From: Escherichia phage vB_EcoM_VR7 | Sequence record: NC_014792.1 | Direction: 5' to 3' (one strand) | DNA: 64,000 nt | Shown: positions 33,600 to 38,064 of the stretch, piece after piece | How positions within the stretch are numbered: position 1 is the stretch's first letter | Layout: each line of letters opens with the position of its first letter | Program-made: the position numbers and the translations under genes | Notes under the pieces: generated by a model | What the model was told of the DNA's origin: nothing | Databases searched by the model: none | Seen by the model: the letters and a program-made list of their open reading frames with translations, nothing else

Positions 33600-34778
33600 T
33601 TATAGATATTTACGGAAACCAGCAAGAACATTCTCATCGACGTCATTGTCAATCTGGGCTACCAGGTAAGCGGACAACTCAACTTCTTGTGGCGCAGATT
33701 GCACATTATCAGAATTGAGATATTCGCGAATCCATGGAATCGGGTGCTTAGTAGATTCTAACACGATTTCACAAGGGAGACCGCATTGCTTCATACGAGA
33801 AACTGTCAGGTAATCGATGAACCGGTTAAGAATCTCGACGCTCAGCCCGGGGAGTCCACCATCTTTAAACAGATGCACAGCCCATTCTTTTTCCTGACGA
33901 TTGACTTCCATGAAAATAGCTGCGGCTTCTGCTTCACATTCGTGAGCAATTTTAACCCATTCGTCACCGTCAACACCAGTCTGCAGCTGACGAAGAATAT
34001 ATTGGGTTCCCTTAAGGTGGAGCTGCTCATCACGTGCGATGAACTTCATTATCTTCGCATTGCCTTCCATGATTTCCATGTTCTTATGGAAGTTGAAAGT
34101 ACAAGCAAAAGATACATAAAAACGAATTGCTTCCAGGGCGTTAATGACATGCAGGCAGAGATAAAGAGATTTCATCAATGCTCGTTTGGCAATAGCTTCT
34201 TGTTTGATAGCTCGTTCCAAACGTTGGTCCACTTCGGGAGTTTCTTTGGCCAGTTCAACAAAAGCAATCTGGTTTTGCCATTGACGAGTTTTATTCAGAA
34301 CATCATCATAGTAATAGCCAATTGATTCGGCTCGCTTCATGATTGCATCATCTAACAGGATTTCGTCGAATACCTTCGCCGGGTCTGTATAGAGATTTCG
34401 CATGATGTGTGTATAAGAACGAGAGTGAATTGTCTCGCTGAATGTCCAGGTCTGAATCCATGTATCAAGACTCGGGTCAGAAACTAATGCGGCTAATGCT
34501 GCAGCCGGAGCACGACCCTGGATACTGTCCAGAAGTGATTGGTACTTCAGGTTATTGGTAAAAATATTTTGTTGATGTTCAGGAAGCTTATTAAATTGAG
34601 CTCCGTCCATCATCAGGTTTACTTCCTCGGGCCGCCAGAAGAATGACAATTGCTTTTCTGTTAATTCTTCAAAAACTTTATGACGCTGGATATCATAACG
34701 GGCGATGCCCAATCCTGAACCAAAAAACATCGGCTCGGCTAAAACATCCACCGGAGTGGTATTAAAAACTGTACTCAT
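33600..34778 (-). CDS. nrdB: ribonucleotide reductase small subunit (uninterrupted, no intron)
   Basis: 392 aa continuous ORF; strong match to class Ia R2 and T4 NrdB. Confidence 0.95.
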   Translation of the reverse strand: MSTVFNTTPVDVLAEPMFFGSGLGIARYDIQRHKVFEELTEKQLSFFWRPEEVNLMMDGAQFNKLPEHQQNIFTNNLKYQSLLDSIQGRAPAAALAALVSDPSLDTWIQTWTFSETIHSRSYTHIMRNLYTDPAKVFDEILLDDAIMKRAESIGYYYDDVLNKTRQWQNQIAFVELAKETPEVDQRLERAIKQEAIAKRALMKSLYLCLHVINALEAIRFYVSFACTFNFHKNMEIMEGNAKIMKFIARDEQLHLKGTQYILRQLQTGVDGDEWVKIAHECEAEAAAIFMEVNRQEKEWAVHLFKDGGLPGLSVEILNRFIDYLTVSRMKQCGLPCEIVLESTKHPIPWIREYLNSDNVQSAPQEVELSAYLVAQIDNDVDENVLAGFRKYL

Positions 34779-34816
34779 TTTATTTCCTCAATAGCTCATC
34801 CATGAGCATAATTATA

Positions 34817-37072
34817 TCAAAGTTTACAAGCGGAGCAGTCTTCTGCTTTAGGAGCTTCGATTTCGTAATCGTCTGTTCCGGAACCGTCTCTAGTGTTATG
34901 ATAATAAAGGTTTTTTCCACCAAAATACCAGAAGTACATCAAGTCGTCAAGCATAACTGACATCGGAACTTTTCCTTTCGGAAAAATCTGTGGGTCATAG
35001 TATGTGTTTGCTGAAGCTGATTGACATACCCATTTCAACATAATAGCTACCATCGTAAGATAAGGTTTATTACCTTTCTTAGCTAGCACCCATGCATAAT
35101 CGTACAATCCTTTATTGTGCTCAATATTGGGCACGACTTGATTAAAGGAACCCTCTTTTGACTCTTTAATAGAGACTGGTCCACGCGGAGGTTCGATACC
35201 GTTTGTACTGTTAGAAACTTGGGAAGATGACTCACAAGGCATAAGTGCTGATAATGTGCTATTACGGATGCCATATGCAACCAGGTCTTCCCGCAACTGC
35301 GCCCAGTCACAAACGTAGTTTGGAGCTGCGATTTGGTCAATCTTTTTATTGTACCAGTCGATAGGTAATTCGCCTCGAGCCCAACGAGTGTCTGAATAAT
35401 ATTCGCAAGGTCCTTTTTCTTTGGCGAGCTTGATTGATGCTCGGATAAGGCCATATTGTAATCTCTCAAATAATTCATGGGTTAAATCGTTTGCATCAGC
35501 GTAAGAAGCGAAATTGCTTGCCAGCCATGCAGCATAGTTAGTAACCCCAACACCCAGGTTACGGCGTTTTTTGGCTTTCAGAGCTTCTTTAACCGGATAA
35601 CCTTGGTAGTCCAACAGGTTATCAAGAGCACGAACTTGAACTTCAGCCAGCTCGTTAATCTTGTCTTGGTCCTGCCAGTCAAAACTATCCAGAACAAATG
35701 CAGACAATGTGCACAATCCGATTTCAGCGTCTTCACTGTTTACATCAGTAGTCGGGATTGCAATTTCACAACATAAATTCGATTGACGAATCGGAGCCTT
35801 ATCGCGGATGAACGGAGTATAGTCATTCACATTATCAACGAACTGCGGATAAACTCGGGCAGTGCCGGAACGTTCGGTCATGAATAATTCGAACAGGTCT
35901 TTTGCTTTGATGCGCTTCTTACGAACTGTCGGGTCTTTTTCCAAGGCTTCGTATAACTCACGGAATTTATCCGGGTTATCAAAATATGAATAATACAATT
36001 CACCACCGGCTTCGTGTGGACTAAACAGAGTGATGTAATCATTCTTAGCCAGTCGTTCCATCATCAGGTTATTCAACTGAACACCATAGTCCATATGTCT
36101 GATGCGGTTTTCTTCAACGCCCTTGTTGTTCTTCAGAACGAGTAAATTTTCAACTTCCAAATGCCATAAAGGATAATAAGCAGTAGCAGCGCCGCCACGG
36201 ATTCCACCTTGTGAACAGGATTTAACAGCCGTTTGGAAATGTTTCCAGAACGGAATAACACCAGTATGCTTGACTTCACCCATACCGATTTTCGAACCTT
36301 CAGCACGAATCATGCCAACGTTGATACCGATACCCGCCCGCTTACTGATATATTCGATGATTGAATTGGCGGTCTTATTGATTGACTTCAGGGAGTCAGC
36401 AGCTTCGATAACCACACAGGAACTGAACTGCCGGGTAGGTGTTCTGGCGCCCGCCATGATAGGTGTGGGCAACGAAACCTGTCTTGTGGATACTGCATCA
36501 TAAAAACGGCAAACGTGCTTCAGACGGTCCGTTGGTTCATCCTGGTGCAGTGCCATGCCGATAGCCATGATAGCGAATTGCGGAGTCTCGTAGATTTTAC
36601 CGGTGGTTTTATCTTTAACCAGGTATTTCTCTTTCAACTGCATCGCGCCTGCATAAGTCAGGTCAAAATCACGTTCGTGTTTGATACGAGATTCCAGATA
36701 AGTAATCTCTTCGGCGGAGTAGCTTGACAACAGTTCCGGGTCATATTTGCCTTCATTGACACAATAAGAAATCTGGTCAATAAAAGAACGTGGCTCGAAC
36801 TGACCATAGACATCTTTACGCAGAGCAAACATCGTAGCTTTGGCCGCAACATATTGGTAATCTGGTTCTTCAACCGAGATAAGTCCAGCAGACACTTTGA
36901 TGATAACCGTCTGAATATCGCGAGTAGTCATACCATCGCGCAGATGTGGTTTGATTGTTTCGTATAATTCATACGGGTCGATATTAGTTCCTTCACATGA
37001 CCAGGAAAGAACTTTAATAATTTTCTGGCCATCAAAATCTTGAGATACGCCACTACTTTTTTGTACTTGCAT
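34817..37072 (-). CDS. nrdA: ribonucleotide reductase large subunit
   Basis: 751 aa; near-identical to T4 NrdA over long stretches (GIGINVGMIRAEGSKIGMGEV, C-terminal CSACKL). Confidence 0.95.
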   Translation of the reverse strand: MQVQKSSGVSQDFDGQKIIKVLSWSCEGTNIDPYELYETIKPHLRDGMTTRDIQTVIIKVSAGLISVEEPDYQYVAAKATMFALRKDVYGQFEPRSFIDQISYCVNEGKYDPELLSSYSAEEITYLESRIKHERDFDLTYAGAMQLKEKYLVKDKTTGKIYETPQFAIMAIGMALHQDEPTDRLKHVCRFYDAVSTRQVSLPTPIMAGARTPTRQFSSCVVIEAADSLKSINKTANSIIEYISKRAGIGINVGMIRAEGSKIGMGEVKHTGVIPFWKHFQTAVKSCSQGGIRGGAATAYYPLWHLEVENLLVLKNNKGVEENRIRHMDYGVQLNNLMMERLAKNDYITLFSPHEAGGELYYSYFDNPDKFRELYEALEKDPTVRKKRIKAKDLFELFMTERSGTARVYPQFVDNVNDYTPFIRDKAPIRQSNLCCEIAIPTTDVNSEDAEIGLCTLSAFVLDSFDWQDQDKINELAEVQVRALDNLLDYQGYPVKEALKAKKRRNLGVGVTNYAAWLASNFASYADANDLTHELFERLQYGLIRASIKLAKEKGPCEYYSDTRWARGELPIDWYNKKIDQIAAPNYVCDWAQLREDLVAYGIRNSTLSALMPCESSSQVSNSTNGIEPPRGPVSIKESKEGSFNQVVPNIEHNKGLYDYAWVLAKKGNKPYLTMVAIMLKWVCQSASANTYYDPQIFPKGKVPMSVMLDDLMYFWYFGGKNLYYHNTRDGSGTDDYEIEAPKAEDCSACKL

Positions 37073-37203
37073 GTTTTCCTCTGTTATAAAATGGGGTCAT
37101 GCTTATACTAACACATGACCCCTGGAGCGGAATCGTATTTATAGAAGGAAGTTAAGTCCGACCATTACGACCAAAAATAAAATGCCAGCAATTTGAATTT
37201 TCA

Positions 37204-38064
37204 TTAGACCGCCATCGGTGCTGGTATTGTCGGATGTGGCTCATAGTTTTCCAGAACAAAATCACCCGGAGACATATGACGAGTCACCCAATATAACTGC
37301 ATTTCCGTGTCCCATAACTGGAACTGTTCAGGCCAATTGATTTTCAGAGTTGGCAAAGTCTTAGGTTCACGACGAAGAACTTCTTTGCATTGCTCGATAT
37401 GGTTAAGATAGATATGCGTGTTACCACCCATGAATATCAACTTACCAGGCTTGAGTCTAGTCATTTTAGCGACAATATGTAAAAGCGTACCATAAGAACC
37501 AATGTCAAACGGAAGCCCCAGGAATACATCAACCGAACGTTGATACCATAACAGGTCAAGCTCACCATCGTGTACGTTAAATTGGTAAAGCAGATGACAA
37601 GGAGGTAGAGCCATTTGTTTCAGTTCAGCCGGGTTCCATGCAGACACAATCTGACGACGGTCAGTCGGAACTTTCTTAACTTTCTCGATGGTCTCAACCA
37701 GCTGGTCAACCCCACCAAAATCGCGCCACTGTTTACCATATACTGGACCCAGTTCGCCATCAACATAACCTAACGCACGACCTTGAGCTTCAAAGTTCTG
37801 GTCCCAGATAGTCTTTTTATCAGAGTCAGGGCCATGAGTAATTTCACGAAGACGTTCAACGTTCGTAGAACCTTCCAGGAACCACAGAAGCTCACCAACC
37901 ACAGATTTGTATGCCAAACGTTTAACGGTCGTTGCAGGGAAGCCTTCAGACATGTCCCACTCAACTTTAGTACCAAATGTTGCGATAGTACCAGTTCCTG
38001 TGCGGTCGTCAGTCTGATAGCCAATGTCAAATACAGTTTGAATCAAGTCTTGATAATTTTTCAT
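37204..38064 (-). CDS. td: thymidylate synthase (uninterrupted, no intron)
   Basis: 286 aa continuous ORF, the same length as T4 TS; conserved active-site region (ALPPCH). Confidence 0.95.

Follow-up and report, generated by a model that had tools for sequence, protein, structure and literature searches.

In bacteriophage T4, the td gene carries an intron that codes for I-TevI, and the nrdB gene carries one that codes for a defective I-TevIII (T4 annotation; PMC2988022). The T4 introns were reported in 1987-89 to be variably present among T-even phages, and across T4-related genomes free-standing endonuclease genes far outnumber introns (PMC2988022, PMC2993671). The classical intron-less recipient in crosses with T4 is phage T2. 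The present analysis concerns td and nrdB of Escherichia phage vB_EcoM_VR7 (NC_014792.1), studied at positions 33600-38064 of a 64-kb stretch of its genome of ~170 kb. This stretch is termed the window, and all positions refer to it unless stated otherwise. A first-pass annotation of the window had contrasted both genes with their T4 counterparts, with an account of the T4 introns that agrees with the sources above, and had described them as uninterrupted and of canonical length. The locus was found to be a conserved T4-type nucleotide-precursor cluster with ordinary intron-less td and nrdB alleles in a Gaprivervirus phage, a reading given a probability of about 0.93.

The three genes of the studied region, and the positions in td and nrdB that correspond to the T4 intron insertion sites, are as follows.

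37204-38064, minus strand: td, thymidylate synthase; 286 amino acids (aa), 861 nucleotides (nt), uninterrupted open reading frame (ORF), Pfam PF00303
37516|37515, minus strand: empty td intron site, at gene nt 549|550, within FLG|LPF
34817-37072, minus strand: nrdA, large subunit of class Ia ribonucleotide reductase; 751 aa, 2256 nt, uninterrupted ORF, Pfam ATP-cone, Ribonuc_red_lgN and Ribonuc_red_lgC
33600-34778, minus strand: nrdB, small subunit of class Ia ribonucleotide reductase; 392 aa, 1179 nt, uninterrupted ORF, Pfam PF00268
34103|34102, minus strand: empty nrdB intron site, at gene nt 676|677, after the first nt of a Cys codon, FYVSFAC|TFNF

The td product matched PF00303 (Thymidylat_synt) over its full length (1-266/266, 300.6 bits, E 1e-89), and its translation contained the active-site motif ALPPCH (PPCH region). 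The nrdB product matched PF00268 (Ribonuc_red_sm) at 9-271/281 with 123 bits, and nrdA gave one co-linear BLASTN match to T4 nrdA with 79.7% nt identity. At 286 aa, Td has the length of both T4 Td and T2 Td. NrdB is equal in length to T2 NrdB (392 aa, with 80.7% aa identity), the T4 protein having 388 aa. These lengths leave no room for any insertion.

To place the T4 intron junctions, a terminal T in the exon and a terminal G in the intron were required and the translation was consulted; the result was a td intron of 1017 nt (gene nt 550-1566) and an nrdB intron of 598 nt (gene nt 665-1262). In BLASTN alignments, nt 307-548 and 549-704 of the window td corresponded to nt 307-548 and 1566-1721 of T4 td, while nt 1-674 and 677-1152 of the window nrdB corresponded to nt 1-662 and 1263-1738 of T4 nrdB. 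The td gene was ungapped and co-linear with spliced T4 td across 861 nt, and neither window gene had a gap at the T4 exon junctions, 549|1567 for td and 664|1263 for nrdB. The alignment to T4 that had been proposed as a check thus located both empty sites, and the description of td and nrdB as continuous genes of canonical length was borne out by the single ORFs, the full-length Pfam matches and the co-linearity over the T4 junctions.

At the Rfam gathering threshold nothing was reported in the window; the T4 td/nrdB locus was likewise blank, which makes that scan uninformative. It was dropped as evidence, both T4 introns, the positive control, having been missed. In its place, the RF00028 covariance model was run at E<=1 with the T4 introns as positive control. 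Both were found (40.3 and 35.7 bits, E 9e-8 and 2e-6), and no match was obtained in 33100-38700. Over the whole 64-kb window, Rfam at E<=1 returned no group I intron, only two chance-level small RNA matches. Sensitive BLASTN with the T4 td and nrdB introns gave only chance matches to the window of up to 43 nt (E>=0.015), all of which lay elsewhere than in td and nrdB. A TBLASTN search of the window with I-TevI detected no homologue, and one with T4 I-TevIII produced only a marginal 26-aa match, inside a free-standing HNH ORF. The realigned genes therefore hold no intron-like sequence by BLASTN or by the permissive RF00028 scan.

The best megablast match of the region was vB_EcoM_VR25 (Gaprivervirus), in one co-linear piece of 98.4% identity, followed by SP18, 212, P896 and other Gaprivervirus at 93-96%. 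Thirteen members of the genus were compared: VR25, SP18, VR26, VR20, CJ20, TH57, DK-13, TH15, RZ, P8 and P479 directly, with 212 and P896 counted as single co-linear matches. Neither a td nor an nrdB intron was present in any of the 13. Single co-linear matches to the window locus were obtained for VR25, SP18, 212, P896 and CJ20, which have the same uninterrupted td (861 nt), nrdA (2256 nt) and nrdB (1179 nt) and the same short spacers; relative to VR25, only point differences amounting to 1.6% were seen over 33600-38064. The td and nrdB genes of TH15, RZ, P8, DK-13 and P479 are uninterrupted in the same way, at 93-95% identity to the window. For these five phages, and for VR26, VR20 and TH57, all length differences lay in two intergenic spacers and never within td or nrdB, so that length variation of the cluster within the genus is confined to these spacers. 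The most compact form of the cluster seen, with spacers of 38 bp (nrdA-nrdB) and 131 bp (td-nrdA), is common to the window, VR25, SP18 and CJ20.

In the phage collection, with at least 80% of the intron length required to be covered, ~197 records were counted for the td intron and ~118 for the nrdB intron; the gene cluster itself was matched by 942 records in megablast, a lower bound on the number of T4-like phages. The carriers were Tequatrovirus, some Mosigvirus (TH12, F27, AV109) and some Salmonella and Klebsiella phages. The rarity of the alleles was therefore overrated in the first-pass annotation: intron-less td and nrdB are the majority state, common to all 13 genus-mates, and are ordinary here and already known. 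The architecture of the locus is already on record from VR25, SP18 and others and carries little weight on its own.

The locus resembles that of T2 in its uninterrupted td and nrdB (286 and 392 aa), in having no mobE between nrdA and nrdB, in the codon AAG at position 42 of NrdB, and in an nrdB insertion-site region and MobE nick region that are near-identical. Unlike T2, the phage belongs to another genus, with nt identities of 62% for td and 75% for nrdB, and nrdA.1 and nrdA.2, which T2 retains in its td-nrdA interval, are absent from the window. With T4 it shares orthologous genes in the same order and orientation, and the coding sequence at the insertion sites is kept. Absent from the window are the 1017-nt td intron and the 598-nt nrdB intron of T4, the mobE and nrdB.1 genes of its nrdA-nrdB interval, and the nrdA.1 and nrdA.2 genes that T4 has between td and nrdA. 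The td gene is more diverged from T4 (61% nt and 63% aa identity) than nrdA (80% nt) and nrdB (~75% nt). Its C-terminal segment (aa ~240-270; gene nt 691-810) is essentially unrelated to that of T4 and resembles that of Mosigvirus F27, a pattern that suggests a mosaic ancestry of td. In the T2 record used, AP018813 (locus 5785-6963), nrdB is mislabelled ‘thymidylate synthase’ and nrdA ‘single stranded DNA-binding protein’; their translations identify them clearly as NrdB and NrdA, and the automatic annotation of this record is not to be trusted.

The endonucleases that act on intron-less alleles have been described in some detail. I-TevI has a site of ~38 bp and cleaves at 5'-CAACG-3', at distances of 23 and 25 nt upstream from the insertion site (PMC2988022, PMC5009752), requiring C1 and G5 of the CNNNG motif, with the C at -27 and the G at -23 (PMC5009752). 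[quoted passage not shown] The T4 MobE endonuclease nicks T2 nrdB at nt 122-126, and in phages lacking mobE codon 42 is AAG, the target allele being marked by this codon and a T2-like sequence at nt 114-131 beside the FFWRPEE-coding block (PMC2790892). The equivalent positions in the window are the following.

37505-37542, minus strand: I-TevI homing-site equivalent (-27..+11), 38 bp, predicted from sequence likeness
34073-34132, minus strand: I-TevIII homing-site equivalent (-30..+30), with predicted cleavage at -14/-16, ~34116-34118
34644-34667, minus strand: MobE nick region equivalent, nrdB nt 112-135, a T2-like allele with codon 42 AAG (Lys)

The native CAACG motif is kept at -27..-23 (37538-37542), where several genus-mates have CAGCG in its place. 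Over the whole I-TevI site, identity to the T4 intron-less junction was 30/38 for the window and 32/38 for T2. The I-TevIII region was identical at 56/60 positions, and fully so at -25..-3. At nrdB nt 112-135, the window matched T2 at 21/24 positions, compared to 75% gene-wide, and the FFWRPEE-coding block beside the nick region is conserved. Since highly conserved coding sequence surrounds the insertion sites, the target features of the T4-family endonucleases are retained, and the earlier suggestion that the td and nrdB alleles are potential targets in co-infection appears plausible. In a mixed infection with an intron-carrying phage, both alleles could be cut and converted. The identity of the td flanks to T4 is 61% overall and 73-75% near the site, and at such low values (61-75%) repair by homologous recombination would be limited even after cutting. 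The exon flanks of intron-plus td in Mosigvirus F27 and TH12 were compared with the window, a comparison dropped as uninformative on cleavability, intron-plus alleles being disrupted sites. The exact empty sites and target sequences are now mapped, and are usable for the recipient role in homing and marker-exclusion crosses.

An alternative to genuinely continuous genes is that a hidden or highly divergent intron or intein was missed, or that the continuity is an assembly artefact. A scan at the default Rfam threshold, which misses even the T4 introns, would not by itself have settled the matter. The gene lengths, equal to those of T2 and for Td also to T4, leave no space for an insertion, the permissive scan with its working positive control was negative, and independently sequenced relatives at 93-98% identity are equally continuous. 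This alternative is extremely improbable and already effectively refuted. The td and nrdB genes are each read directly as a single ORF, without RNA splicing, and the most parsimonious history would be a lineage never stably invaded by the introns, a history favoured by their absence in 13/13 genus-mates, the lack of remnants and the lack of a donor-like tract in td. No observation conflicts with the intron-less reading of the genes. Weighing against the wider picture is, to begin with, the fact that a lineage never invaded is not distinguishable from one that was anciently invaded and then underwent precise loss. In addition, the 40-codon stretch of nrdB with the highest synonymous identity to T2 spans the insertion site (27/37 vs 52% elsewhere, nominal p 0.02-0.1), a peak that was not significant after scanning and that may reflect old exchange or, equally, nucleotide-level constraint. 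The td site, moreover, differs from T4 at 8/38 positions, four of which (-10, -6, -1 and +3) are no more than ~10 nt away from the insertion site, the centre of the primary binding region. The first two points bear on secondary loss, in which an ancestor had the td intron, the nrdB intron or both and lost them precisely, recombination with an intron-less allele being one possible route, leaving the sites ‘reset’. The introns have crossed genera, as their presence in Mosigvirus TH12, F27 and AV109 and in Salmonella and Klebsiella phages indicates, the local rise of synonymous identity to T2 at the nrdB site would fit such an event, and a cyclical model of gain and loss has been described (PMC2988022). 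Loss is nevertheless considered improbable: neither intron occurs in the 13 Gaprivervirus relatives, BLASTN revealed no intron remnants in the window, and the nrdB signal is weak and would fail multiple-testing correction. In td, no raised synonymous identity near the insertion site was found that could be the footprint of co-conversion or intron loss; the gene is without a T4-like co-conversion tract, and the 73-75% identity near the site fits the local aa conservation.

The td differences bear on a further possibility, that the sites have drifted or been selected such that I-TevI, I-TevIII or MobE no longer cut, making the alleles resistant and poor targets in co-infection. The substitutions at -1, +3, -6 and -10 fall in or beside the 20-bp primary binding region, many CNNNG variants are not cut by I-TevI, whose activity depends on context (PMC5009752), and the hypervariability of nrdB nt 112-135 within the genus suggests that this endonuclease target is under selection. 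Set against these are the native CAACG with C1 and G5 at the right distance (PMC5009752) and the fact that T2, a natural recipient, is itself already changed at 6/38 positions, two of those changes being shared by the window. The near-complete identity of the I-TevIII region, including the full match at -25..-3, points the same way, as do the nick pentamer and codon 42 AAG of T2, the type found in phages lacking mobE (PMC2790892), and the general tolerance of homing endonucleases to sequence change (PMC5009752). Resistance is accordingly regarded as somewhat unlikely, and sites that have kept their target features as the preferred reading.

The two spacers in which the genus varies are the following.

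34779-34816, minus strand: nrdA-nrdB spacer, 38 bp, without a mobE-type endonuclease gene and without nrdB.1
37073-37203, minus strand: td-nrdA spacer, 131 bp, without nrdA.1 and without nrdA.2

At the first site of variation (window ~34780-34808), DK-13, TH15, RZ, P8 and P479 have a MobE-family HNH gene of 640-730 bp, coding for 213-242 aa, in this spacer, for which the window has 38 bp. The N-terminus of these endonucleases is like that of T4 MobE and the C-terminal domains differ, with at least two kinds present. For DK-13, the annotated 140-aa endonuclease ORF was tried as a MobE-like candidate and showed no similarity to T4 MobE; comparison with the intact 242-aa homologue of TH15 suggests that it represents the C-terminal part only. 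Within the genus, nrdB nt 112-135 is a substitution hot spot, with 9-10 of the 24 positions changed in DK-13, TH15, P479 and VR26 compared to 4-6% gene-wide. The cluster of substitutions is carried by 3/5 of the relatives with an HNH gene between nrdA and nrdB. As a predictor of nick-site change the HNH gene was only partly successful: gene and change coincide in DK-13, TH15 and P479, RZ and P8 have the gene without the change, and VR26 has the change without the gene. Given this partial correlation and the differing C-terminal domains, no immunity rule is claimed. The polymorphism of the spacer and of nt 112-135 looks like homing-endonuclease turnover, though it is not cleanly tied to the presence of the endonuclease. 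Tentatively, and with the odds rather against it, endonuclease gain, loss and target-site escape may be ongoing at the nrdA-nrdB junction of Gaprivervirus, with the present phage in the naive configuration. If so, this phage, with its T2-like nick sequence and near-perfect I-TevIII site, would be a natural recipient for cross-genus homing and for the study of endonuclease/target co-evolution.

At the second site of variation, relatives carry nrdA.2, nrdA.1 and a small ORF, inserted at the breakpoints 37082|37138 and 37210|37195, which flank a conserved segment of 73 bp (37138-37210). In the window, the td-nrdA spacer holds the T4 late-promoter-like sequence TATAAATA at ~37130-37137 and, at ~37092-37121, a hairpin whose stems are 9 bp long, GGGGTCATG...CATGACCCC, a short distance upstream of the nrdA ribosome-binding site.

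The first-pass annotation had also stated that the endonuclease-like genes of the phage are all free-standing. In the window, three such genes were identified.

28050-28814, plus strand: MobE-family HNH ORF, 254 aa, with a NUMOD3 motif, between cd.4 and pseT; VR25 has the same ORF, annotated
41513-42185, minus strand: segG homologue, between genes 32 and 59, the T4 segG slot; absent from VR25
62557-63048, minus strand: HNH(-AP2)-type endonuclease ORF, 163 aa, between denB.1 and rIIB; an insertion relative to VR25

All three are intergenic and the window as a whole gave no group I intron signal, so that the statement holds for the window. Because nrdD, the third intron host in T4, is absent from the genes of the 64-kb window, the statement does not extend to the unseen two-thirds of the genome. 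The ORF at 28050-28814 had 51% identity to the N-terminus of T4 MobE (E 2e-25) and matched phrog_655 (E 1e-63); it converges on pseT and overlaps the 3' end of that gene by 87 nt (28728-28814). The segG homologue had 54% identity to T4 SegG (E 3e-42) and matched phrog_7504. A +1 frameshift divides it into two ORFs, of 182 and 53 aa, the TH15 gene being intact at 223 aa, and an extra A is seen near 41660 (GCTAAAGCG vs GCTAAGCG in TH15). The frameshift marks either a fresh pseudogene or a sequencing error. The ORF at 62557-63048 matched the HNH endonuclease family phrog_374 (E 1e-58), with a weak AP2 match, and VR25 has only 44 bp at its position. Compared with VR25, the segG homologue (41.5-42.2 kb) and this last HNH ORF (62.6-63.0 kb) are thus present in the window only.

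The order of the genes, 32-frd-td-nrdA-nrdB-denA-rnlA, matches that of T4. The genes flanking the studied region are listed below.

38061-38654, minus strand: frd, dihydrofolate reductase, upstream of td; Pfam DHFR_1
33163-33579, minus strand: denA, endonuclease II; Pfam GIY-YIG, phrog_1111 and synteny with T4 denA
32030-33166, minus strand: rnlA, downstream of nrdB-denA, with the Pfam domains of T4 RNA ligase 1

The frd gene overlaps the start of td by 4 nt, an overlap also found in T4. The denA product has the GIY-YIG fold but is a host-DNA nuclease and no homing endonuclease. Host-DNA nuclease, and not homing endonuclease, is also the class of denB, which VR25 annotates in a stretch co-linear with the window.

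The window as a whole is co-linear with VR25 nearly throughout, apart from a few indels and divergent segments. The divergent segments comprise the hoc region (2676-4754) and the tail fibre (47147-47832 and 50347-53097). Between frd.2 and gene 32, VR25 has ~290 bp of its own (hypothetical gp188; VR25 locus 40470-40760) that are absent at window 40413-40446, and further segments exclusive to VR25 lie near window 55070 and 56430. Upstream of alc (31211-31813, minus strand), a short ORF at 31725-31991 on the minus strand repeats the N-terminal motif of alc (YGDRNDGIYVYKGDRRIGFITDLKAKL vs YGDRHDGIYVYKGSKNVGFLTDLRKKL). This ORF is a partial tandem duplicate, and VR25 is annotated likewise.

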